Source: an uncultured Candidatus Woesearchaeota archaeon
GTDB lineage: Archaea > Nanobdellota > Nanobdellia > Woesearchaeales > UBA525
Direction of reading: 5' to 3'
Length of the DNA: 61,157 bases
NCBI GenBank assembly: GCA_963724455.1
Contig: CAVRUV010000006.1
Span: 1-61,157 of the forward strand
The notes under the pieces were generated by a model. That model had not been told where the DNA came from, ran no database searches, and saw nothing but the letters and a program-made list of their open reading frames with translations. This document shows positions 2,043-13,717 of this stretch, one piece after another; the first letter of the stretch is position 1; each line of letters starts with the position of its first letter. Made by a program: the position numbers and the translations under genes.

Positions 2043-2894
2043 TTAACTTTGAAGAAGCGCGATATGCTCTATGATCTTTTTTATTTCTGCATTGTATGCA
2101 AAAATTGGTGCTGCAGATGGAATACTTCCTACTTGCGAACGAAGCTCTTCATCAGTTTGAACTCCATCATCGATATCTTTTAGGTACTGCGCAATCTGCT
2201 CATCAGTTGAATGATATCTTGACTGGATGATTGACATTATCATATCATTCTTCTTTATTTCTCGTAAACGCAAATCTCGCAACGTGCTAATTTCCAATCC
2301 TAACTGCTCTTTTAGCTCTTTGCGCTCTTCTGGAGTCATGTTGCGCTTAATGTATCCATCACCAGTTTTCTCAAGAACTTCACCGCTAGAAACATTAAAT
2401 GATAATTCGCCTTCGCCGGCAACAACAATGCCCTCGCCGACAAGCAGTTTGTATGGCTTTGCCATTGTTTCAAGAGTTGTACCACGAACAGTAGCTGTAG
2501 TTGTTGGAGTTTGTATTTTAAATTCTTCAACACCGCCGAGCTTTGTTACTTTAGTCCAAACAGCACCAGAGTTTTGCTGCAAGAGTTGATTTTTTTGAGA
2601 GAGTTCATCAATTGAGATTTCAGTATTTGAAGCGAGCCTTACAAGCACGCTATCATATAGAACAACAACTGCGCTCGCGTCATTGCCGGTTTTAATTGAT
2701 GCGCCTTGTTTTAAGAGCTGATCTTGCTGTGCTGCAACATAACCGCTTCCCAGATTCACTTGAACATCGCCGGAAACAGTGCTGATTCTAGCAGGCACTT
2801 TGCCGTTTGGCCATATCATAACGACAAATATTATTGCAATAATCAATACTAACGCTACTGGAATGTAAAACCAAGGTTTTTTGTAAAAGCTCAT
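2043..2894 (-). CDS. FecR-domain membrane-anchored protein
   Basis: N-terminal TM; FecR-like motifs (L.QG.SIKTG, VRLASNTEI, FKIQTPTTTATVRGT); directly upstream of the cyclase. Confidence 0.8.
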   Translation of the reverse strand: MSFYKKPWFYIPVALVLIIAIIFVVMIWPNGKVPARISTVSGDVQVNLGSGYVAAQQDQLLKQGASIKTGNDASAVVVLYDSVLVRLASNTEISIDELSQKNQLLQQNSGAVWTKVTKLGGVEEFKIQTPTTTATVRGTTLETMAKPYKLLVGEGIVVAGEGELSFNVSSGEVLEKTGDGYIKRNMTPEERKELKEQLGLEISTLRDLRLREIKKNDMIMSIIQSRYHSTDEQIAQYLKDIDDGVQTDEELRSQVGSIPSAAPIFAYNAEIKKIIEHIALLQS

Positions 2895-2990
2895 GAGGAC
2901 CCCTCTTAGAGCTGAAGATGCACTTATAGTTTAAAAATGTAGTGGAGAAATGTGAGGTATGAGAAGAATATGAATAATATTAGAATACTT

Positions 2991-3141
2991 TGTCGCCTTG
3001 GAGCAAATCCTAGAAATTCCTCCGATTCATGCAGGAGGAATTTCCTAAACTCTCTGAGGGACGCGAAGGATTCGAAGAATCCTTGCGCAAGAATTCAAGT
3101 AATCATGTTGAATTCTTCGCGAAGAGCAATTCTCCGCGACA
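2991..3141 (+). repeat. Structured intergenic element, copy A
   Basis: tgtcgc-CTT-ggag...ctcc-gcgaca outer stem; gaaattcctcc-GATTCATGCA-ggaggaatttc hairpin; two further internal hairpins. Confidence 0.8.
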
Positions 3142-3160
3142 TGAAAAATGAAATAAAAGA

Positions 3161-3529
3161 TCACTTAAAGAATTCTTTTCCAGGATCCACTTCATTCATA
3201 CTCATTGATTTTTGATGTTCTGGAGTATAGATCTTGATTATAATGAATTTTCCAGAAGTTGTTTTTGTATCGGCATGGATTGTCTGTTCGATGATTAGAC
3301 AATGACCCCAATACAACCATTTGCCATCTATATTATGCACTAGAAAACATCTAATGGGCGCAGGATGAAATATTCTCATATTCGGTTTATTTTTGAATGA
3401 GAATGTTTTTCCTTTGAAATAATCTGCAGTGAATTGTTTTTTCAAATGTTTTTTCAAGTCCAGCTCTTCTGGAAATCCCTGTTCTGTTGTCAGTTGCAGT
3501 GTATCATTTAATTCAATATAACTTCCCAT
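3161..3529 (-). CDS. Conserved hypothetical protein
   Basis: 122-aa ATG ORF with globular protein-like composition and an upstream TATA-like TTTATA. Confidence 0.7.
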   Translation of the reverse strand: MGSYIELNDTLQLTTEQGFPEELDLKKHLKKQFTADYFKGKTFSFKNKPNMRIFHPAPIRCFLVHNIDGKWLYWGHCLIIEQTIHADTKTTSGKFIIIKIYTPEHQKSMSMNEVDPGKEFFK

Positions 3530-3609
3530 AGATTTAGATAGAACTTATTCGGATATAAATTAATCGATAAGTGGATTTGTTAATATTGATATTTCTCAAT
3601 ACCACATCT

Positions 3610-4143
3610 TTACTCTATAATATATTCCCAACCAGGTTGCCAGTTTTTTGTATTTCTCCAATCATTTGCAATCGCATCTTCCCAAGTCATTTTCTTGCTC
3701 AAGACATCTAGTGCCAATTGCGGGCCTTGATGTGAAACAATTGCAACGTGCATACCATCATAATTCTCTTTTAAGAATTGTAAAAATGAATCCATTCTTT
3801 TCTGGACATCCAAATAACTCTCGCCATTAGGATATTTTATCTTAATATAATCTGCAATCGACCATGTCTTGTGCTTTTGCGTCAAATCGCCATAATCGCA
3901 TTCTCTAAGTCTTGAATCCTTGATGTGCGGGCACCTTTTGTCAAACGCGAGTTTAGCAGTATCAATGGCTCGTTTCAAATCAGAAGTGAACACAACATCA
4001 AATTTATCTTTTCTTTGAATACCTAATTCTTTTCCTTCCTTTATTCCTTTCTCAGACAATTCTATATCGTTGTGACCCGAAGCTAAATGATCGATATTGT
4101 CTTGAGTTGTTCCATGAACAAAATAAGTTATTTTTACAACCAT
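3610..4143 (-). CDS. Histidine phosphatase (phosphoglycerate mutase-like) family protein
   Basis: TYFVHG (variant of RHG), TSDLKRAIDTA, LRECDYG, PNGES, IVSHQG; start placed at MVVKITY. Confidence 0.85.
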   Translation of the reverse strand: MVVKITYFVHGTTQDNIDHLASGHNDIELSEKGIKEGKELGIQRKDKFDVVFTSDLKRAIDTAKLAFDKRCPHIKDSRLRECDYGDLTQKHKTWSIADYIKIKYPNGESYLDVQKRMDSFLQFLKENYDGMHVAIVSHQGPQLALDVLSKKMTWEDAIANDWRNTKNWQPGWEYIIE

Positions 4144-4223
4144 AACTCCGCAAAAGAATGTCATGATATAATAATTTCGTAAGATTTGATAGAACAAAGC
4201 TCATAATAAGAACAAAATAATAA

Positions 4224-4703
4224 CTACTTTAACAAATACCCGCTGACGAACTTTGTCGGTTTTTTTGCAAGTTTTTGATGTGGTAGAATTAATCCTCTGC
4301 AAGTCTTGTGACCGCACAAGCAATCCATATCCCAAGAATGATAATTTGTAAATAATGAATAATCTGCAGTTATTTCTTCTCCCTTTTCAATCGCTCTTCT
4401 TGCGTATAACGTATCATGATCAAAATATGCATTCGATTCGCAAGAATGATTCAGATACCAAATTATTGAGAATCGAAACGGTTCGATGAATACATCCTTA
4501 TTCGAAATCTTTCCTTTTGTAGTATTTCTTTTTTCAATTTGTATTGCGCGATGAGAAAGCTTAGGATTCTTATCAGTCATCTTTGTTCCTGTGACTTTGC
4601 AGAGCAATTCGCCTTTCTTATAATTTCTTGCTGCAAAAAATCCAAATCCTTTAGGACCAGTATGGTCTACTCTAAATCCTTCAACAACTCTAGGATATTT
4701 CAT
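4224..4703 (-). CDS. SET-domain protein-lysine methyltransferase with post-SET Cys motif
   Basis: KGFGFFA, YLNHSCESN, I.KGEEITADY, CLCG..TCRG. Confidence 0.88.
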   Translation of the reverse strand: MKYPRVVEGFRVDHTGPKGFGFFAARNYKKGELLCKVTGTKMTDKNPKLSHRAIQIEKRNTTKGKISNKDVFIEPFRFSIIWYLNHSCESNAYFDHDTLYARRAIEKGEEITADYSLFTNYHSWDMDCLCGHKTCRGLILPHQKLAKKPTKFVSGYLLK

Positions 4704-4754
4704 ACTTCTGCTCCCATACCTTCACTTTAAAAAGATATCTTACTTCCCAGCAGT

Positions 4755-5732
4755 ATGACCCGCCTTAAGCAGAAAAAAGAGCTTACAGGAACACCTAGCG
4801 ATGTTCGTTTTGGAACCCCTGAACTTGTTGCAAACTACAGGGCAAAACGCCTTGCAAAGTTCCAACCAGATACTATCATAGATCTTGGCGCGGGAGTGGG
4901 TTTTCAGAGCAATGCATTTGCAAAGCTCGTAAAGAACGTCATTGCAGTAGAAATTGATGCTCAAAAAATATCACGAGCAGGACTAGATAAGAACGTCATT
5001 GCAATTACTGGTGACGCATTAGATCCTAAAGTAATAGAGCAAGTAACAAAAGCGTGCGTGGGAAAAGTGATATTATTCTTAGACCCTGAAAGACCAGCAA
5101 GTTCTGAACGACGTACACTTGCTGAAATAAAACCAGATATTCAAAAAATACTTACTACATACGGTAAAATCACAAAGGAAATAGCAATAGAAATGCCTCC
5201 ATATTTGTCAAATGAAGAACTCGATAAACTACCAAAGCACGAGCGAGAATACCTATCAATTGATTGCGTGCTCAACAGGCTTACATTATATTTTGGCGAG
5301 CTTCGAGAAGAAGTGGTTTCAGCAGTGCAATTACCAAAAGAGCACCGCATCGCTGCAAGCATACTAGAACCAATAAGAAATGTACAAGTCTTAGAACACC
5401 ATTTGTTAGAGCCAGATGCTGCGCTTCTCAAAGCAGATCTTGTTGGTAACGCGCTTTGCAATCTAGCTGTAATGGTTGAAAACATCGGCAACAAATCAGT
5501 ATATATCAGCTCAAGAAATACAACAAGTCCGTTCTTTAGAAAATACAAGGTAATTGCGCACGGTAATAGAAAACTTATAGAAAAACGATTATTCAAGCAC
5601 GGCAGTGTAATCCTGCACGGCAAATTAAGCGCAGAAGAGCAGCGTGAGTTGCAGTTTGGGTTAAGAAAGTTCTGCCGCGGAAAAGACAAGGTTCATCTAT
5701 TTATTGGAAGGCAATGGTATTTAGCGCAATAA
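4755..5732 (+). CDS. SAM-dependent methyltransferase (Tgs1-like, probable RNA methyltransferase)
   Basis: RFGTPELVA..RAKRL, IIDLGAGVG, VIAVEID, FLDPER. Confidence 0.75.
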   Translation: MTRLKQKKELTGTPSDVRFGTPELVANYRAKRLAKFQPDTIIDLGAGVGFQSNAFAKLVKNVIAVEIDAQKISRAGLDKNVIAITGDALDPKVIEQVTKACVGKVILFLDPERPASSERRTLAEIKPDIQKILTTYGKITKEIAIEMPPYLSNEELDKLPKHEREYLSIDCVLNRLTLYFGELREEVVSAVQLPKEHRIAASILEPIRNVQVLEHHLLEPDAALLKADLVGNALCNLAVMVENIGNKSVYISSRNTTSPFFRKYKVIAHGNRKLIEKRLFKHGSVILHGKLSAEEQRELQFGLRKFCRGKDKVHLFIGRQWYLAQ

Positions 5733-5815
5733 ATTATTGAGTTATTTAATATTTGAATTATTATATATCTGAGTTATTATTAGAATTGTTACTAAAATTT
5801 TAACTTCTTTAATTT

Positions 5816-5964
5816 AGAATGCGGAGATTTAGTCCTCCCTCCCTCGTCACTTCACTGCGTTCGTTCCTGCGGTTTCGCTTCTTTGAACCGAAACGGTCCG
5901 GGGTTTTACGAAATCTCGTCTGCACCAATCAACGAGATTTCTGCTCTTACTCCAAGGCATTTTA
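5816..5964 (-). repeat. Structured intergenic element, copy B
   Basis: Minus strand: aatgc-CTT-ggag...gaaatctcgtt-GATTGGTGCA-gacgagatttc-gtaaaa...ctcc-gcatt; 3' half near-identical to copy D. Confidence 0.85.
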
Positions 5965-6004
5965 CTTAGACTTAACTTTTACTTAGAACTAACTATCTCT
6001 GAAA

Positions 6005-6457
6005 CTAAATATTACCAGAAAGCTTTTTCATATCACTTCCTATCTCGAATTCTGCAGTATTCTGATCGCTTTTTCTCAAAGTACCTGTGCGTATATCGTT
6101 CATTGTTTTCTCAAGAGAAGATATAACTTCTTCAAGGCTTGTTTTCTCAATATCAACGTATACAAATATGCCCGCATAATACCCTTTGATACCAACATAA
6201 TTATTCAATAAAAATACCTTATCTATTACGCCGGAAAGATTTTCAAGACCTAAACGCGCAACATAACCTTGGGCATCAATATTTGTTCGAAGAATTCCTG
6301 CAAAAGAAAGGGGTACCCCATTTAATCCAACAAATCCTGTTATAGGATAGCATGTTGAAGCTCCTTTCTTGAATGCTATATCTGAATGAATATCCAAACT
6401 ACCAACGTAGCCTGCAAACTTTTCTTTTTCTACCGTTCGAATAACACATGGGTGCAT
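6005..6457 (-). CDS. Hypothetical protein
   Basis: 150-aa ATG ORF preceded by GGAG; no recognised motif. Confidence 0.6.
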   Translation of the reverse strand: MHPCVIRTVEKEKFAGYVGSLDIHSDIAFKKGASTCYPITGFVGLNGVPLSFAGILRTNIDAQGYVARLGLENLSGVIDKVFLLNNYVGIKGYYAGIFVYVDIEKTSLEEVISSLEKTMNDIRTGTLRKSDQNTAEFEIGSDMKKLSGNI

Positions 6458-6647
6458 ATTATCTCCGTCATTATTTTCTCAGCCGCACTAAGAACTGAGG
6501 AATAAAAGGAATTCTGAGGAAAAAGGAATACAAATGCGATTAAAGGCAATACAAAGAGAAATCTTCATTCATTTATATCGATTATCATAATCTCTCCTCG
6601 TCAGTTGTGACGAAGACATAAAAAGCCTCCCGACCGAACTCCCGACT

Positions 6648-8369
6648 ATGGATGAACTAACCCCAAATCAGCGACTTATTGCATACTACTCTATGGAAAT
6701 CGGTCTGCGCCAAGATATCCCAACCTACTCAGGTGGCCTTGGAATGCTAGCAGGAGACACGTTAAAAGCATGTTCTGACCTCAAAGTCCCTGTTGTAGGA
6801 GTCACCCTTGTTTCATCCAAAGGATACTTCCTACAACATCTAAACAAGAACGATGGCTGGCAAACAGAATCGCCAGTCGAATGGGACTTGCACGAAAAGC
6901 TTACACTACTAAGTCCAAAAGTTGTTGTACACATACAAGGAAGACCAGTTACCATTAGAGCTTGGCAGTATGATGTTATCGGAGTTAATGGATTCAAAGT
7001 ACCGGTCATTTTCTTGGATACAAACCAGCCAGAAAATAACGATTTTGACAAAACACTAACAAATCAGCTCTACGGTGGAGACCGATTCTATCGCTTATGC
7101 CAAGAAGTAGTCCTTGGCATTGGTGGAACAAGAATGCTCCACATATTAGGATATACGAATCTTAGCAGATACCATATGAATGAAGGCCATGCTGCACTTC
7201 TATCCTTGGAGCTTGTCAAAGAAAAAGCAATAATGACTGGCGTGCATATTGAAGATTTCGAGAGCGCAAAAGAGTGCATCGAATATACAAGAAAACATTG
7301 CGTGTTCACAACACATACGCCGGTTGCAGCTGGACACGATAAATTCGATTATGATATGGTGCAAGATGTCATGCGTAATTATCTTCCAACACCGTTCATC
7401 CAGCATTTGGCTGGAGAAGACATGCTGAATATGACACTTCTTGCGCTTAACTTAAGCCATTTCGTTAATAGCGTAGCAAAAAAACACATGGATATCAGCT
7501 CGCATCTATTCCCAGGATATCATTTCAATAACATCACGAATGGTGTTCATAGCAGTACTTGGACCTCACAAGAGATGCAAAAGTTATTCGATAATTACAT
7601 TCCTGGCTGGCGACAAGATAGCTTTGAATTGCGCCACGCACTCGTAATTCCAAAACACGAAATCTGGGATGCGCACCAAGCAACAAAGCAAAAGCTCGTA
7701 GACTACATCAACACCAATTATAATGCTGGTTTTGATAAGGATGTATTCACCATTGGATTTGCCCGTCGAGCAACTGCATATAAGCGCGCAAACTTATTGT
7801 TCTATGATATTGAACGCCTTAAAAAAATTGGCGCAAAGCAAAAAATACAAATTGTTTTCGGAGGCAAGGCCCACCCAAACGATACAGAAGGAAAAGAATT
7901 AATCAAAACTATTTTCTGGCACATGGGCGAATTGCGCGATATCATAAAAATAGTTTATGTAGAAAATTACGATATTGATCTTGCAAAATTAATGGTTGCG
8001 GGTGTTGATATCTGGCTCAATACTCCTGCTAGACCACATGAAGCATCTGGCACTTCTGGCATGAAAGCTGCGCATAACGGAGTTCCACAACTATCAATAC
8101 TTGATGGTTGGTGGATCGAAGGACATCTAGAAGGAATTACTGGATGGCGACTCGGCCCCACACCAACCGAAGAAAATGAGTATGCAAATGACGACGCTGC
8201 AGATTCTGATGAACTCTACGACAAGCTCGATAATATCATCTTAGCATTATACTATTATGATAACAAGAATTGGCAAAGAGCAATGCGCAACACCATTGCA
8301 TTCAACGCATCATACTTCAACACACATAGAATGGTACAACAATATGTACTCAATGCGTATTTGTTGTAG
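6648..8369 (+). CDS. glgP: Alpha-glucan (glycogen/maltodextrin) phosphorylase
   Basis: YSGGLG.LAGD, HMNEGH, FTTHTPV.AGHD, FARRATAYKRA, PLP-binding EASGTSGMKAA. Confidence 0.95.
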   Translation: MDELTPNQRLIAYYSMEIGLRQDIPTYSGGLGMLAGDTLKACSDLKVPVVGVTLVSSKGYFLQHLNKNDGWQTESPVEWDLHEKLTLLSPKVVVHIQGRPVTIRAWQYDVIGVNGFKVPVIFLDTNQPENNDFDKTLTNQLYGGDRFYRLCQEVVLGIGGTRMLHILGYTNLSRYHMNEGHAALLSLELVKEKAIMTGVHIEDFESAKECIEYTRKHCVFTTHTPVAAGHDKFDYDMVQDVMRNYLPTPFIQHLAGEDMLNMTLLALNLSHFVNSVAKKHMDISSHLFPGYHFNNITNGVHSSTWTSQEMQKLFDNYIPGWRQDSFELRHALVIPKHEIWDAHQATKQKLVDYINTNYNAGFDKDVFTIGFARRATAYKRANLLFYDIERLKKIGAKQKIQIVFGGKAHPNDTEGKELIKTIFWHMGELRDIIKIVYVENYDIDLAKLMVAGVDIWLNTPARPHEASGTSGMKAAHNGVPQLSILDGWWIEGHLEGITGWRLGPTPTEENEYANDDAADSDELYDKLDNIILALYYYDNKNWQRAMRNTIAFNASYFNTHRMVQQYVLNAYLL

Positions 8370-8469
8370 ATGCTGAATTTATTTTCGTTTATTTATTTTT
8401 TATTTGTGTCTTATTTAATTTTAATAATTCTGGAAAACCTTCTTAAAGAAAAGATACAGTTCTATATTT

Positions 8470-8934
8470 ATGAAATCTTCAATAATGATCTTATTTGCAT
8501 TTTTACTTATGACAGGTTTCTTGCTTATTGCATGTTCAACAAATAATGTGCAAACTGCACAATCTAATTTACCATCTACTCCCTCAGGAGATACAACGGC
8601 CCTTACGTCACCACCACAAACAAATCCATCCGCAAACACACCAACCACCACAAAAGCACATGAAATAAGCATTAGCGCAGTCCAGTTTGCATTTGACCCC
8701 GCTACAATTACAGTAAAGAAAGGCGAGCTTGTCAGATTGACTCTCACTAGCAAAGATGTTGCTCATGCAATAGCGATTCCAGAATTCGGAGTTTCGACAG
8801 ATCCGGTTAGTGGTGGAGAAAGCACAACAGTTGAATTCACACCAACAAAAGTTGGTACATTCCAATTCCGCTGCAGTGTTCCTTGCGGTCCAGGACATCG
8901 CGACATGACTGGTACCATTACCGTAACAGAATAA
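8470..8934 (+). CDS. Lipid-anchored cupredoxin with CuA-type ligand motif
   Basis: Signal/lipobox LLIAC, Pro/Thr linker, DVAH and CSVPCGPGHRDM. Confidence 0.82.
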   Translation: MKSSIMILFAFLLMTGFLLIACSTNNVQTAQSNLPSTPSGDTTALTSPPQTNPSANTPTTTKAHEISISAVQFAFDPATITVKKGELVRLTLTSKDVAHAIAIPEFGVSTDPVSGGESTTVEFTPTKVGTFQFRCSVPCGPGHRDMTGTITVTE

Positions 8935-8949
8935 GATTTTATTATTTTA

Positions 8950-9273
8950 TCACATTATTTTCTTTAATTTTTTCAGATCTTTTATTGCTTGTCTATATCC
9001 TTCATATCGCGACATAGAATCTCTCACTAAATTAGAACGCAAACACTCTTCTTCTAAGATAATACAATACTCATCTAGAATCCTGCCGACTTGTCGCTTA
9101 TTTGGTGCGTGAAGAGCGTACAATTGTATGCACTCAAGATAACCTTCTTTGAAGGCGGGTGTGCCATCTGGAATCCTAATAGCTGCAACAACATCAGTTC
9201 TTATATGATGATCTTGCTCTATTTTCTTTTTAGGAATCCTAGTTCGCATTGGAATATCGCGAGTCATAAACAT
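8950..9273 (-). CDS. Hypothetical protein
   Basis: 107-aa ATG ORF filling the space between neighbours. Confidence 0.5.
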   Translation of the reverse strand: MFMTRDIPMRTRIPKKKIEQDHHIRTDVVAAIRIPDGTPAFKEGYLECIQLYALHAPNKRQVGRILDEYCIILEEECLRSNLVRDSMSRYEGYRQAIKDLKKLKKIM

Positions 9274-9377
9274 CTAAAGAGATCTCTTGCATATATTGTT
9301 ATGCATATCCCATAATAATTTTACCTGTAAATCGATTTATTATATTTATTATCTTCCCTCATCATTTCATCTGTACT

Positions 9378-10184
9378 TTAAAGCATCGGCACTTCAACAA
9401 TTATGAATCTGGCAGATTTAGTAATTTTGAAATTAATAGATACACCAGCTAAAACTTCTGAAATTCCTATTGCGTCTCGCTTATGCAGAACCTCATCATC
9501 AATAACTATTTCTCCATCAATTACAAATACAAAAATTCCTTTATCTTTTGATAACTTGTAGTTAAAAGTTGATTTTTTATCATTTTTATCATATGACCCG
9601 AAGAATACCTGTGCACCCTGATGAATGTATAATGAATCATCATCCCGTTCTTCTTGTTCTTCTTGTTCTCCTCGTTTACCAGATACGATTTTGGTTAAGG
9701 TATTTTTATTTTTTTCAAAATCAAATTGTTTTTTATCATGACGAGGTTTAATGTTCTTTTCTTTAGTCTCTATCCATAATTGAAGTAATTCTAATTTATT
9801 TTTCGAGGAGTTATTATGCTCTGAATGTATGATACCAGAACCGGCAGACATTACTTGAATATCTCCATAAGTTACGACTTCAGTCACACCGGTACTATCT
9901 TTATGCTTTAGTTCTCCTGCTAGAACTATGGTTATTATCTCCATATTCTTATGCGGATGTGAATCAAAACCTTGCGCAGGTGCAATAATATCATCATTAA
10001 GAACGCGCAGCTTTCCAAAGCCCATCCTAGCAGGATCATAATAATCTGCAAAACTAAAACTAAATCTAGACAAAAGCCATCCTAACTTACTAGTTCCTCT
10101 AGATTCAGCTCTGTAGATTATTTTTTTCATAATATTTTCCATAACAAATTGATGTTGTTCAAAATCTATAAATATGTTATCCAA
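9378..10184 (-). CDS. Pirin family protein (YhhW-like); true start probably near 10130
   Basis: FSFADYYDP, LRVLNDD, HPHKNMEI, QVMSAGSGIIHSE, LLQLWI. Confidence 0.92.
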   Translation of the reverse strand: MDNIFIDFEQHQFVMENIMKKIIYRAESRGTSKLGWLLSRFSFSFADYYDPARMGFGKLRVLNDDIIAPAQGFDSHPHKNMEIITIVLAGELKHKDSTGVTEVVTYGDIQVMSAGSGIIHSEHNNSSKNKLELLQLWIETKEKNIKPRHDKKQFDFEKNKNTLTKIVSGKRGEQEEQEERDDDSLYIHQGAQVFFGSYDKNDKKSTFNYKLSKDKGIFVFVIDGEIVIDDEVLHKRDAIGISEVLAGVSINFKITKSARFIIVEVPML

Positions 10185-10250
10185 AATATATACTAATTAT
10201 ACGCTATTTTATACGCTATTTTTTTAAAACAACCAGTAATACTAGTCATT

Positions 10251-11504
10251 ATGGAAGATATAACTGCAAAAAAATACGAGATAATGGCTCCTGTAGGAAC
10301 CTTTGATTCACTTTCTGCAGCAATTAAAGCAGGAGCAGATTCGGTATATTTTGGCATAGAACAGCTCAATATGAGGGCTAGATCCACAAATAACTTTACA
10401 ACTGAAGACTTGAAAAATATAGTTATAATATGCAAAAAAAACAATGTTGGATCATACCTAACTTTGAATACAATTGTCTATGATCACGACATAGCACTAA
10501 TGAAGAAAATTTGTGATGTTGCAAAAAAATCAGGAGTATCGGCAGTTATTGCAAGTGATATGGCAACAATACAATATGCCAACTCAATAGAATTAGAGGT
10601 GCATTGTAGCACGCAAATTAATGTCACAAATATCGAAGCAGTAAAATTCTACAGCAAATTTGCAGATGTGATTGTTCTAGCAAGAGAACTTACACAGCTA
10701 CAAATAAAGAAAATTTGTGCTGAAATAAAAAAACAAAATGTGCGAGGACCTGGCGGAAAATTAATCCAAATAGAGATATTTGTGCACGGAGCATTATGCG
10801 TTGCAATATCTGGAAAATGCTACATGTCGCTTGCCACTTACAATTCTAGTGCGAATCGTGGAGCTTGTCTGCAGAATTGTAGACGAGCATATAGAGTAAT
10901 AGATGAAGAAACGGGCGATGAACTAAAAATTGAGAATAAATACATCATGTCGCCATCTGACTTATGCACCATAGGATTCATGGATAAACTAATAGATGCT
11001 GGCGCTACAATATTCAAAATTGAAGGAAGAGGAAAACCTCCGGAATATGTTTTTACGACAGTCAAATGCTATAAAGAAGCAATTGAATCTATTAAGGCAG
11101 GAACTTATACAAAAAAGAAAATTGAAGGGTGGGAAAAAGAACTTGCCACCGTATACAATAGAGGATTCTGGCAAGGCGGCTACTACATGGGGAAAAAGAT
11201 TAATGAGTGGTCGGCAACTTACGGTGCAAAAACTACAAAAGAAAAAAAGAATATTGGACCAATAGAACATGTTTATACAAAAACATTAGTTGCACAAATT
11301 AACGTTCAAGAAAATGAATTCAAGATTGGCGACGAGCTAGTAATCACAGGTCCTACAACCGGCATTGTGAAAATGAAAGTTGATAATATAAAAGATTACG
11401 ATGGCAAAGAAATTAGTGAAGCAAAAAAAGGAACTATTGTCACAATAAAGACTCCCGAACTAGTAAGGAAAAGTGATAAGGTCTATGTATTCAAAGATAA
11501 ATAG
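10251..11504 (+). CDS. Peptidase U32 family Fe-S protein (TrhP/RlhA-like RNA hydroxylase)
   Basis: GADSVYFG, VHCSTQ, HGALCVAISGKC, ANRGACLQNCRR, KIEGR. Confidence 0.92.
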   Translation: MEDITAKKYEIMAPVGTFDSLSAAIKAGADSVYFGIEQLNMRARSTNNFTTEDLKNIVIICKKNNVGSYLTLNTIVYDHDIALMKKICDVAKKSGVSAVIASDMATIQYANSIELEVHCSTQINVTNIEAVKFYSKFADVIVLARELTQLQIKKICAEIKKQNVRGPGGKLIQIEIFVHGALCVAISGKCYMSLATYNSSANRGACLQNCRRAYRVIDEETGDELKIENKYIMSPSDLCTIGFMDKLIDAGATIFKIEGRGKPPEYVFTTVKCYKEAIESIKAGTYTKKKIEGWEKELATVYNRGFWQGGYYMGKKINEWSATYGAKTTKEKKNIGPIEHVYTKTLVAQINVQENEFKIGDELVITGPTTGIVKMKVDNIKDYDGKEISEAKKGTIVTIKTPELVRKSDKVYVFKDK

Positions 11505-11545
11505 TAAAAATAAATAGTTTAAATCGTAAAGTTCTTTTTTTTAAA

Positions 11546-11642
11546 GAGGTTGCCTTGAAATTAAATCAGGAGAAGACCCGATTCATGCAGGGTCTTCGAC
11601 GTAAAACTTCGTACGGAGTACGAATATAAATTTCGCAACCTC
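11546..11642 (+). repeat. Structured intergenic element, copy C (shortest)
   Basis: gaggttgc-CTT-gaaa...tttc-gcaacctc outer stem; gaagaccc-GATTCATGCA-gggtcttc; gacgtaaaa junction; ttcgtac-gga-gtacgaa hairpin. Confidence 0.85.
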
Positions 11643-11691
11643 AAAAAAAGAATATACAAATAAAAATTAAATAAAAAAATATGTTGATAAA

Positions 11692-11931
11692 ATGATAAAG
11701 ATAATACACTACAGGGAAAAATGCATAGGATGCAACAGCTGTGTAGAGCACGCTCCAAATACCTGGAAAATAGACGAGACTGACGGCAAAACAACACTCG
11801 TTGGTAGCACAAATATAAAAGATATCTATATTCTTGAAATAGATGAATCAGTACTAGAAGAAAACGAAAAAGCTGCGCAAGATTGTCCAGTAAATATAAT
11901 TAAAATAAATAAGTCTGGCAACAATAAATAA
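11692..11931 (+). CDS. Single-cluster ferredoxin
   Basis: CIGCNSC...AAQDCPVNII; adjacent to the U32 gene. Confidence 0.88.
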   Translation: MIKIIHYREKCIGCNSCVEHAPNTWKIDETDGKTTLVGSTNIKDIYILEIDESVLEENEKAAQDCPVNIIKINKSGNNK

Positions 11932-11942
11932 TTTAAAAAAAC

Positions 11943-12443
11943 TTATATTTCAAAATTTTGTACTATTCTAAAATCATATTTGTCCACAGTCTTGCCGTCT
12001 TCTTTCCAGATGAATTTTCCAATGAGTTTTTCTCCTCTCAATACTGGTGGAAACCATATTCTATCTGACGCCCACATTTTCGGGTAATAAGAATCTATTT
12101 CACCAAGATTAATCCACAAAGGCGCCATCTCTTTTGTCTCCTTTGGCTCGCCAGTTATTTTACGCACAAAAAAAACATGGACTTGCTGATCGAACTTCGG
12201 CGTGTATGGAAAAACAAAATCAATGATTGCTACTTTTTCTAAATCATCAATCTTTGCCCTGACATTGGCTTCTTCATACAGCTCTCTTATTGTTGTATGA
12301 AGTATTGATTCATCAGTCTCTTCTTGCTTTCCGCCAAACCCGTTATAATTTCCAGCGCCCTGTCCTTCTTTTTTCAAGCCTAATAGAATATTGTTATTCA
12401 CAATTGGAAAAACTAACGACCTTTGCCTAGGATTTTCTCTCAT
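11943..12443 (-). CDS. NUDIX hydrolase (MTH1/8-oxo-dGTPase-like)
   Basis: LLGLKKEG.G.G.YNGFGGK, RELYEEA Nudix box, MWASDRIW. Confidence 0.88.
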   Translation of the reverse strand: MRENPRQRSLVFPIVNNNILLGLKKEGQGAGNYNGFGGKQEETDESILHTTIRELYEEANVRAKIDDLEKVAIIDFVFPYTPKFDQQVHVFFVRKITGEPKETKEMAPLWINLGEIDSYYPKMWASDRIWFPPVLRGEKLIGKFIWKEDGKTVDKYDFRIVQNFEI

Positions 12444-12517
12444 AGCAATTTACCTTATTAAAAAAAACTATATTATAAGTAAATAAAAATAAGTAAATAA
12501 AAAAATTAATAATTATG

Positions 12518-13255
12518 CTAATCGTTATCTACTCTTGGAGCTAAAATAAACATTAATTCCATCTTGTCCATAAGTTTGTAATCAAGCTTTAGAGGATAAT
12601 CCTTGCTGAAGCTGACTTCAACGATTGGTGCGAGCTTTCCGGCAGGTACCATCTTCTTTAGGTATTCAATGCTGTACTTTGAGCGGACTTCAACTGCTGC
12701 CTTGATCTTTGTTTTTTCGTCAGCGAGTATTTCAATAACTGCTTTTGATAGGTCAGAACTTGAACTTACAGTGAACGCTTCGGCATCTGCTGAGAAAATT
12801 ACACTCTCGCCGATAATATCAGCATCATCGATTGCGTCGCTGAGCACATCAGAGTTTGTGTGTACGACTGCTGTGAATGATAGGTTAGGAATTTTTTGTT
12901 CTCGCTCATCGATGTCGATAAGTGGTAAGTAGAACTCACGCTTACTGCCGCCTTTTAATGTGACTTTTAGTTTGTTCTCAGCAAGTTCTAGAGTCATTGT
13001 ATCTTGAGGCTTGGTTCTTCTAAAAACACCCTTAAGGTCGTTGAGGTTAACCCCGATGTAAGATGTGGTTGTAACGTGATACTCCGAGAATGCGCTGGAG
13101 AGAAGCTTGTAGATGACCATTGCAACATTAGCAGGATCCATTGCGATAAGTTCCATGCCATCTGGCGATATCTTGAATCGTACTTCGTTAACAAGGTCTG
13201 CGATTATTGTAGTGCTATCTTTGAGAAGCTTTGTTTCTGCAAGTGTGATTTTCAT
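12518..13255 (-). CDS. pcn: DNA polymerase sliding clamp PCNA
   Basis: AMDPANVAMV, SKYSIEYLKK, DYPLKLDY, FILAPRV; 245 aa. Confidence 0.96.
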   Translation of the reverse strand: MKITLAETKLLKDSTTIIADLVNEVRFKISPDGMELIAMDPANVAMVIYKLLSSAFSEYHVTTTSYIGVNLNDLKGVFRRTKPQDTMTLELAENKLKVTLKGGSKREFYLPLIDIDEREQKIPNLSFTAVVHTNSDVLSDAIDDADIIGESVIFSADAEAFTVSSSSDLSKAVIEILADEKTKIKAAVEVRSKYSIEYLKKMVPAGKLAPIVEVSFSKDYPLKLDYKLMDKMELMFILAPRVDND

Positions 13256-13291
13256 GATTAACCCCTACTAAGCTGTAGAGTCACTACGACG

Positions 13292-13307
13292 TATATAAAC
13301 ATTTTCG
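13292..13307 (-). promoter_or_regulatory. BRE/TATA promoter of pcn
   Basis: Minus strand CGAAAATG-TTTATATA about 37 nt upstream of the ATG, with a GGGGGT SD-like site. Confidence 0.65.
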
Positions 13308-13344
13308 TAGGTTTATAAGGGAAATTTGAGAAAAGTACGTTAAG

Positions 13345-13495
13345 TGCCGCCTTGAGACCAACCAGGAGAATTGCCGATTGGTGCAGGCAATTCGACGCAA
13401 AACCTCGGACCGTTTCGGTTCGAATGTAATGAGACGCGAAACCGCAGGAACGAACGCAGTAAGTGACGAGGGAGGGAGAATAGATGCTCGCGGCA
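13345..13495 (+). repeat. Structured intergenic element, copy D
   Basis: tgccgc-CTT-gag...ctc-gcggca; gaattgcc-GATTGGTGCA-ggcaattc; gacgcaaaa; 3' module shared with copy B. Confidence 0.85.
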
Positions 13496-13717
13496 AAGAA
13501 ATAAAAAAGAAAATAATTCTTCGCGCCTAAAAAAATAAAAAATTCTAAAATTCAAACTAAACTAGAACTAGTAAATTCTAACTACTAAACTGGAAACTAG
13601 AACTATTAGAAAATCCTACTGACTATCTTGAGAACAACAATCAACACTCACCTCTTGCACACAGAGCATATCATTTATAAATAGAAAATAGAATGTGTGG
13701 GGTGGTGGGAAAATATA

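Follow-up and report, generated by a model that had tools for sequence, protein, structure and literature searches.

A family of folded repeats with covarying stems in a Woesearchaeota genome, very probably derived from mobile DNA

The 61,157-nucleotide stretch of Woesearchaeota DNA analysed here (the window) carries four intergenic elements, A to D, and the question was what kind of element they are. The original prediction described them as structured elements with a fixed loop and covarying stems; the sequences read as it described, and the stems always paired. The outer stems of A to D differed (tgtcgc/gcgaca, aatgc/gcatt, gaggttgc/gcaacctc and tgccgc/gcggca, respectively), and each was followed by a CTT bulge. 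The loop GATT(CA/GG)TGCA was closed by stems that differed in sequence and paired every time, and (G/C)YAAAAC, 3' of the loop-closing helix (P3), was followed by a variable hairpin domain.

The shared core was about 90 nt and consisted of a closing stem P1 of 6-8 bp, an invariant CUU bulge, a helix P2 of 4 bp, and a three-way junction carrying an 11-bp P3, capped by the GAUUNNUGCA loop (L3), and a variable P4. The stems, bulge and loop had been recognised in the original prediction, and P2, directly after the bulge, had not been named. Examples of P2 were GGAG/CUCC and GAAG/CUUC; by our own calculation, pairing past 4 bp was no commoner than chance. P3 was 11 bp long in 69 of 87 copies. C-CUU-G and 8 of the 10 loop positions had almost zero entropy, and both L3 and the P4 loop could carry optional inserted domains. 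The variable positions were all paired, and a free guide-like segment was absent. The pair after the bulge was G-C in 76 of 80 sequences and G-U in 4, and the next pairs covaried as Watson-Crick pairs. A kink-turn was rejected, as it would have tandem sheared G-A pairs at this place. Mutual information picked out the helices only, with no pseudoknot or tertiary covariation. When the sorted copy list was inspected by eye, the two variable letters of the loop did not visibly covary with the junction. Copies in the related genome G006 had, as read by eye, a second 3-nt bulge on the same strand.

Copy A (2991..3141, plus strand) was of the long form, with P1 at 2991-2996/3136-3141, the CUU bulge at 2997-2999, P2 at 3000-3003/3132-3135, P3 at 3013-3023/3034-3044, L3 at 3024-3033, CUAAAC at 3045-3050, and a P4 domain at 3051-3131 with two inserted hairpins. 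A covariance model built from 20 copies (R1) matched it at 2990-3090 with 56.7 bits, the match being shortened by the long P4 insertion. Copy B, also long (5818..5961, minus strand; R1 match 5868-5959, 42.3 bits), had P1 at 5961-5957/5822-5818, the bulge at 5956-5954, P2 at 5953-5950/5826-5823, P3 at 5941-5931/5920-5910 with one U-G pair, and L3 at 5930-5921. Copy C was of the short form (11546..11642, plus strand; 83.2 bits), with P1 at 11546-11553/11635-11642, the bulge at 11554-11556, P2 at 11557-11560/11631-11634, P3 at 11569-11579/11590-11600 with tandem G-A/A-G, L3 at 11580-11589, GUAAAAC at 11601-11607, and a P4 hairpin at 11608-11624; its RNA fold was calculated at -35.1 kcal/mol (z -5.8). 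In copy D, again long (13345..13495, plus strand; R1 match 13344-13437, 42.3 bits), P1 was at 13345-13350/13490-13495, the bulge at 13351-13353, P2 at 13354-13356/13487-13489 (3 bp), P3 at 13365-13375/13386-13396 with tandem G-A/A-G, and L3 at 13376-13385. Copies B and D had the same insertion of about 60 nt in the P4 domain. All four lacked recognisable ends or duplications and are bare cores.

The source genome, that of an archaeon by its PCNA, contained 108 copies in 1.26 Mb and 45 contigs (R1, E <= 0.001), a density of about 86 copies per Mb, and this one folded repeat made up about 1% of it. The four elements predicted within 11 kb were the only R1 matches in the window, and the family was genome-wide. 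The pattern exceeded chance by far: a search for GATTNNTGCA between the arms of a stem of 7 bp or more gave 87 sites in the genome, all with a CCTTG-like sequence about 20-30 nt upstream. The copies whose bounds could be set (n = 76) were 85-237 nt long, non-coding and nearly always intergenic, and no gene of the source genome was interrupted by a copy. Their orientation relative to the neighbouring genes was near random (same/same 28, same/opposite 19, opposite/same 14, opposite/opposite 13; 2 of the 76 had no downstream gene). Sequence homology of diverged copies ended at P1; beyond the 6-8 bp of P1, the flanks of source-genome copies paired no better than mismatched controls, and the 76 copies had no target duplication at any fixed offset. 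No TATA-like or promoter signal was found at a fixed distance upstream of the copies, and none of 113 candidate places held a copy with a decayed P3. In short contigs assembled from one DNA run, no joints or gaps were found at the elements.

Covariation was massive and supported the stems of the original prediction. When 81 distinct copies drawn from several genomes were compared, 95.9% of pair cells were paired, compared with 64.4% in shuffles (0 of 500 shuffles reached the observed value) and 37-48% in slid controls; double-changed cells numbered 556, compared with 157 in shuffles. RNAalifold on 20 copies gave 22 pairs, 19 of them with compensatory changes, and the distal 7-mers of P3 were of 61 different kinds among 74 parsed copies. 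G-U/U-G cells outnumbered A-C cells (46 vs. 13, p = 2e-5) in the multi-genome alignment, as the predicted one-strand G-U argument implied, where the alignment (A3) was fitted to the model and its pair counts and G-U/A-C ratio were biased toward structure. There were 38 G-A/A-G cells in that alignment, and tandem G-A pairs occurred. The G-U share was 2.6% of cells, which is low for RNA and would also fit folded DNA. The flanks of the element strand were A-rich in all four gene-orientation classes, against an intergenic background near 0. The excess of G-U over A-C, the tandem G-A pairs and the A-rich flanks indicate that one strand is the folding strand. For the copies called subfamily 1, the RNA fold was -45.5 kcal/mol in the sense and -35.0 kcal/mol in the antisense direction.

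Comparison with Rfam 15 gave no match at the gathering threshold in the window and none at E <= 10 in 2800-13700; single elements gave noise only (E 0.26-8.6, far under the gathering scores). The shared fold matches no described RNA family, and on this point the claim of an undescribed structured element stood. ARAGORN found no tRNA-like gene in the window, and at least 25 ordinary tRNA genes lie elsewhere in the source genome.

Of 18 further genomes in the same family, 10 had matches and 8 had none. Three genomes of the same genus had no pattern match, and no match was found in the 22 other families sampled. Among the sequences searched, the repeats were seen only in Woesearchaeota-labelled or related archaea; viral contigs gave 74 pattern matches, none of which was confirmed by the covariance model. 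The core was conserved across genomes with PCNA 65-82% identical. Out of 16 loci, 4 copies in G006 adjoined the same gene as a copy in the source genome, 3 of them in the same orientation, which exceeds only modestly a rough chance estimate of about 1.

In the genome G157 and in metagenome contigs, the core lay between terminal inverted repeats with target-site duplications, so that the term MITE-like is right for relatives of the window copies. At least three kinds of miniature transposon ends were found, with inverted repeats of 11, about 18 and 13 bp. In subfamily 1, a perfect 3-bp duplication was present in 18 of 20 copies, and in subfamily 2 a perfect 9-bp duplication in 7 of 14; in the third type (13-bp repeats), an 8-bp duplication was perfect in 1 of 3 script-matched copies and had one mismatch in a second. 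G157 contained bursts of near-identical copies. Its paired subfamily-1 ends were spaced 134 nt (17 pairs) or 175-177 nt (4 pairs), 5 left and 2 right ends had no matching partner, and no long autonomous element with these ends was seen there. Two stray right-end-like matches on C7 were 5.6 kb apart and faced outward. Young copies kept a set spacing to a TATA-like box, which was exactly 13 nt in subfamily 1 and 14-17 nt in subfamily 2; in the third type, it was 13 nt by eye at the 2 of 3 distinct sites that were measured. Empty sites in relatives, which the original prediction had proposed to look for, were not recovered in alignable form when the family to which G157 belongs was searched at the DNA level. 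At the PCNA locus, five relatives had no element and were too diverged to align past the promoter; the peptidase U32 gene had no match in these five.

A trans-acting HUH or RT enzyme had been suggested as one possible partner, and the genomes searched did not support it. Y1_Tnp (PF01797) was absent from the source genome, G006 and G004; its only full match was in G007, which is element-free, and G157 had only a 67-aa fragment. The TnpB-type domain (PF07282) and RVT_1 were absent from the source genome, G005 and G006, and a retroelement or omega-RNA reading was rejected. Moreover, duplications of 3, 8 and 9 bp are what staggered double-strand cuts would leave, rather than single-strand HUH transposition. 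Partners of the IS630, IS3 and IS4/5 types were also rejected. DDE_3 and rve were not found, and DDE_Tnp_1 had one gene in the source genome (C15), with nothing element-like in the inverted repeats around it, and one in G015; G006 and G005 had no DDE_Tnp_1, and G157 had none of the three families. No transposase family searched followed the distribution of the element.

Taken together, the family is very probably derived from mobile DNA. We consider it rather probable that A to D are old members of a MITE superfamily and that selection acts on the single-strand fold of its core, which is most likely a protein-bound RNA. Because the core lies inside MITEs with different ends and 3-, 8- and 9-bp duplications, the element would spread as DNA through trans-acting transposases making staggered cuts. 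The source-genome copies would be old, with ends and duplications past recognition and every core still paired. Selection would keep the core as a fold of one strand, the strand given above for A to D; the fold would be an RNA transcribed from the element, and a protein may recognise the CUU bulge together with the loop, whose spacing would be fixed by the lengths of the helices. The benefit may fall to the element or to the host. Several points weigh against this reading. The near-random gene orientation means that many copies would need their own promoter, and the upstream sequences show no TATA-like signal at a constant spacing. G-U pairs are rare, and the model-fitted alignment leans the counts toward structure. 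An autonomous partner with the same ends was not seen, and no transposase family tracks the element. A compact genome may also delete dead copies fast, in which case the absence of decayed copies is no proof of selection, and the intact copies, instead of being old ones kept in place, could have arisen recently from a diversified population of elements.

An unlikely alternative is a family of host small-RNA genes, paralogues that serve the cell much as C/D-box guide RNAs, present by the dozen, do in other archaea, with presence in transposons as a secondary capture. It would account for the pairing kept in all of about 108 copies, for flanks without ends or duplications, for conservation of the core over the observed PCNA divergence and across three end types, and for the copies beside the same gene in two genomes. 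However, a needed RNA would not be expected to be missing from the same-genus genomes and from 8 of 18 family members, identical copies occur in bursts in G157, no promoter signal lies at a fixed distance, and the fully paired variable positions leave no guide-like segment. Distinctly improbable is the REP-like reading raised in the original prediction, in which a structure-specific enzyme (HUH Y1, RAYT-like or a recombinase acting on folded DNA) would use the fold as single-stranded DNA: G-T and G-A pairs in DNA could give the same strand-specific pairing, the G-U share is low, and, by analogy, folded recombination sites have conserved loops and variable stems; yet Y1_Tnp was complete only in an element-free genome, TnpB was absent, and young copies carry fixed-length target duplications, which single-strand HUH transposition is not known to make. 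Action as RNA rather than as single-stranded DNA is fairly probable.

The exact helix lengths, the invariant bulge and loop, and the A-rich junctions would also suit a new class of self-cleaving or catalytic RNA that processes itself from read-through transcripts, and the 11 bp of P3 equal P2 plus P1 (4 + 7), so that by geometry the loop could reach the base of P1; no Rfam ribozyme family matched and tertiary covariation beyond the helices is absent, and we regard this class as very improbable, with protein binding preferred to catalysis for the RNA. Still further from likelihood is a bulge-helix-bulge structure, from an intron or a precursor of circular RNA, on which the tRNA splicing endonuclease would act. 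The 3-nt bulge and, directly after it, the helix of exactly 4 bp agree with this, but the second 3-nt bulge and inner helix are absent, J2/3 and J4/2 neither pair nor covary, no gene is interrupted, and the extra bulge in G006 is not on the opposite strand. Finally, the core may itself be the active module of the transposons, with its folded RNA or strand directing integration by a tether to the machinery of transcription start. Such a role would account for a common core in elements with unrelated ends and staggers (3, 8 and 9 bp) and the fixed distance of young copies from a TATA-like box; its logic resembles that of yeast retrotransposons, which are tethered to transcription factors. We think it improbable; if true, archaeal mobile DNA would here possess a device for targeting promoters.

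Known small repeats offer partial parallels to the favoured MITE-derived fold. Correia/NEMIS elements of Neisseria and BOX/RUP of pneumococci are small non-coding repeats that occur between genes in tens to hundreds of copies and have terminal inverted repeats and short target duplications; their transcripts fold to stable hairpins, and the BOX type has modular optional parts. The present family shares the small size, non-coding intergenic multicopy character, modular parts and, in related genomes, terminal repeats with duplications. It differs in what is conserved, an internal branched core whose bulge and loop are invariant; this core covaries across genomes of different families and rides on at least three unrelated end sets, and its host is an archaeon. 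With REP/BIME-RAYT and PATE/omega-RNA (IS200/IS605), it shares dispersed extragenic palindromes, a strand-specific fold and mobilisation in trans, whereas here Y1 and TnpB are absent from the source genome and G006, the duplications of young copies are of fixed length, and there is no guide. In a census of archaeal MITEs, a 'Woesearchaea genome' was among the richest, with 105 per Mb (PMC11602168), which fits the density found here; as far as its accessible text goes, the census gives counts, and no conserved fold, covariation or shared core.

The family provides a new RNA-like motif, ideal for structure probing because each genome holds over 100 natural variants of it, and can be used as a lineage marker. 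Its young relatives clearly illustrate insertion at a set spacing to TATA boxes. DPANN archaea with small genomes are believed to carry little DNA to spare, yet here about 1% of such a genome is one folded repeat, with pairing kept in every copy. MITEs usually have conserved ends and a drifting interior; in this family the pattern is reversed, and a conserved core with unrelated ends suggests that the fold itself has a function, whether for the element or the host.

Alignment of the four structured stretches A–D of the window showed that GCCTTG, AG(R)A, GATTnnTGCA and YAAAAC were common to all, with intervening stems that differed, as the original prediction had described; each of the four elements folded into the proposed shape. 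In the genome holding the window (G000), a genome-wide search returned 87 places where a stem of 7 bp or more flanked the loop, all with a CCTTG-like word about 20–30 nt upstream. A covariance model (R1) was built on 7 bp of P1, 4 bp of P2 and 11 bp of P3; at E ≤ 0.001 it matched the assembly (1.26 Mb, 45 contigs) 108 times, and the four matches inside the window were exactly A–D. RNAalifold analysis of 20 short copies aligned in 104 columns yielded 22 pairs, and compensatory changes were present in 19.

The core began with P1, of 6–8 bp, whose 5' arm was mostly U-G-Y-Y-R-C. The CUU bulge was invariant, with a C-G pair on one side and a G-C pair on the other. P2 was a helix of 4 bp; its maximal length was 3, 4, 5, 6 and 7 in 8, 38, 15, 11 and 1 copies, respectively, which by our calculation is the spread of a 4-bp helix extended by chance. 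The junction strand J2/3 was A-rich with CA at its end, and P3 measured 11 bp in most copies (69 of 87). The first four pairs of P3 were GAAA/UUUC; a 'GGAG/CGAC' variant had G-C, G-A, A-G and G-C pairs. The L3 loop was GAUUNNUGCA, in which NN was CA in 44, GG in 19, UA in 13 and other in 11 copies. The order 3' of P3 was (N)UAAAAC, P4 with several loop types, UAAAUN, P2' and P1'. Almost no variation (entropy about zero) was seen within C-CUU-G, the closing C-G and 8 of the 10 positions in the loop.

The set analyzed for covariation comprised 83 R1 matches, 81 of them distinct, drawn from the window, from portions of G000 and from loci in about ten further genomes, including the relatives G006, G157, G005, G015 and G018. 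Standard pairs occupied 95.9% of 1746 pair cells vs. 64.4% in shuffles (0 of 500 shuffles reached this value); this alignment was fitted to the R1 model and hence biased towards structure, and an independent MAFFT alignment agreed. In the same 83-match set, cells changed on both sides numbered 556 vs. 157 in shuffles, and pairing dropped to 37–48% when the 3' partner was slid by 1–3 columns. The top ranks of mutual information were helix pairs alone, and 61 different distal P3 7-mers were found among 74 parsed G000 copies.

The multi-genome alignment contained 46 G-U cells vs. 13 A-C cells (p = 2e-5), along with 38 G-A or A-G cells; G000 alone had 26 G-U and 13 A-C cells. A young element of G157 folded at −45.5 kcal/mol as sense RNA vs. 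−35.0 as antisense. Within 30 nt, both flanks were A-rich on the element strand (A 0.45–0.56, T 0.21–0.32), independently of the orientation of the neighboring gene, and intergenic DNA was generally free of such skew; because of these A-rich flanks, no oligo-T terminator lies 3' of the element. In young elements, A-rich linkers inside the element ran from P1 to the inverted repeats.

Among 40 relatives searched, matches came from the same family alone (10 of 18 genomes, with 41, 47, 38, 19, 9, 7, 4, 1, 1, and 1 matches); a sample of 22 other families of the order, one genome each, had none, and the sequence pattern had no instance in three genomes of the same genus. Carriers included G000, G005, G006, G015, G018 and G157; G001, G004, G007 and G009 did not carry the family. 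In a phylum sample, 6 of 150 genomes had matches, all of the same order. The pattern scan gave 4 loci in species representatives, each titled Candidatus Woesearchaeota, and 20 in metagenomes; R1 made 24 matches in 21 of these 24 loci, and 3 metagenome loci had none. The 74 pattern hits in viral contigs included none matched by R1.

Optional modules were found at two places in the core and beside it. The L3 insertion was a conserved two-hairpin module between GAUUC and (A)UGCA in about eight G000 copies (C17:2847–2988, C34:19021–19167, C18:11548–11685, C13:19534–19678, and others), and L3 was wholly different in some other copies. Both subfamilies of young copies in G157 had variants longer by 41–42 nt, with the extra piece within L3 in the one that was read (L069). 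The P4 loop was the second insertion place for optional domains (the long copies A, B, and D); copy C is a short form. A G-rich motif of about 35 nt with GGG runs (...GGGGGAUGGUGGG...) occurred six times in G000 (C1:49054, C7:18735, C10:1461, C13:61408, C29:6164, and C42:51410), each time in the orientation of a copy that lay 5–10 nt upstream. The motif may represent a facultative module of the 3' side, and a quadruplex could form from the G runs.

Nearly all G000 copies were intergenic. By crude gene calls, the upstream/downstream genes of 76 bounded copies were oriented same/same in 28, same/opposite in 19, opposite/same in 14 and opposite/opposite in 13, with 2 at contig ends. The genes adjoining A–D were ordinary (FecR-like, methyltransferase, peptidase U32, PCNA, and amine oxidase), and the presence of PCNA identifies the host as an archaeon. 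The window also encodes, at 34–1923 (−), a CHASE2 sensor domain fused to an adenylate/guanylate cyclase domain, a signaling protein in a small-genome archaeon. Diverged G000 copies lost homology at P1; in G000 as a whole, no pairing was found between flanks, no target duplication at any fixed offset searched, and no TATA-like signal at a constant distance. The bulge word and the loop occurred in correct spacing at 113 candidate places of G000. At least 9 of the 11 P3 pairs formed at 83 of them; the remaining 30 comprised 4 of an internal-loop variant and others that resembled, by eye, chance matches inside genes, so that no decayed copy was visible among these candidates. The copies at C9:5504–5597 and C27:59244–59337 were 98.9% identical, and their flanks matched perfectly over more than 100 nt on either side; this pair is a duplicated segment or contig-end assembly redundancy, not a transposition event.

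Many copies in G157 shared identical R1 scores and, with their flanks, formed two subfamilies. Subfamily 1 was 134 bp long, or 175–177 bp with the L3 insertion, and its ends were TAGTTAGCGGC... and ...GTCGTCGACTA, whose mutual pairing included three G-U pairs. In 18 of the 20 copies read, both ends directly abutted a perfect 3-bp direct repeat whose sequence varied from copy to copy. This subfamily had 26 left and 23 right ends; 21 were paired at 134 or 175–177 nt, and the others had no matching partner end. Subfamily 2 was 152–154 or 193–194 bp long and had 27 left ends; its inverted repeat spanned about 18 bp. Of 14 copies, 7 had a perfect 9-bp duplication and most others a near-perfect one. 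A third type, from metagenome contigs, was 150 bp long with a 13-bp inverted repeat, and its 8-bp duplication was perfect in one of three script-matched copies and had one mismatch in a second. In G006, 5 of 19 copies were bare, and the other 14 each lay inside a roughly 190-bp composite that had an additional helix, P0 (itself covarying), a G+C-rich hairpin and a further bulge of 3 nt.

Against a background of about 0.26 hits per offset, a TATA-like 8-mer lay at a distance of exactly 13 nt in subfamily 1, measured from the left end in 7 copies and from the right end in 9 (of 20), and at 14–17 nt, counted from the left end, in 12 of 14 subfamily 2 copies (G157 loci L067–L086 and L174–L193). 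The 150-bp type (metagenome loci L203, L208, and L212) showed the 13-nt spacing, by eye, in both of the sites measured, out of 3 distinct ones. The box was the promoter of a downstream tRNA gene in two subfamily 1 copies. These results suggest that young copies integrate just upstream of promoters.

Inverted repeats and fixed-length duplications show that the young copies moved by DNA transposition with staggered cuts, and therefore contradict the trans-acting HUH or RT enzyme of the original prediction; its undescribed structured element stood, with young relatives that are MITE-like in these same two features. TnpB-type and RVT_1 proteins had no match in G000, G005 or G006, and Y1_Tnp had none in G000 or G006; Y1_Tnp was present as a fragment in G157 and as a full gene in G007, a genome without the element. 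DDE_3 gave no match over the cut-off and rve none. DDE_Tnp_1 was found once in G015 and once in G000 (C15:18299–18820 (−), IS4/IS5-type, in a 397-aa open frame), and no inverted repeats like those of the element were seen around the G000 gene. None of the six enzyme families tried tracked the element in these incomplete assemblies (G000 is 83% complete).

Two models remain for the intactness of all G000 copies: per-site selection, or continual replacement, in which new copies come from a diversified population and dead copies are deleted fast. Four of 16 G006 loci had a neighboring gene in common with a G000 copy, 3 of them in matching orientation, with about one expected by chance on a rough estimate; in one such pair, the P3 arms differed by transitions alone. 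The shared neighbors weakly favor retention in place.

Transposases normally read element ends. Since the ends differ between subfamilies and the interior has been conserved through compensatory changes in genomes of different families, the core must be kept for its own sake. G-U/G-A asymmetry, A-rich single-stranded flanks and loop-borne optional domains are traits of functional RNAs, and on these grounds the core would be a transcript of the element that acts as RNA. Constancy of the bulge and the loop, and of the helical spacing between them, suggests a putative protein that would contact these two points; that they make a tertiary contact of a catalytic fold seems less likely.

Full-text searches of the literature listed no account of such a motif. 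Passages of a MITE census that put one Woesearchaea genome at 105 MITEs per Mb give no structural analysis (PMC11602168). A real, structured and undescribed repeat family is strongly supported. Its kind, MITE-like structured repeats, is already known; what is new is a conserved branched core common to different transposon ends.
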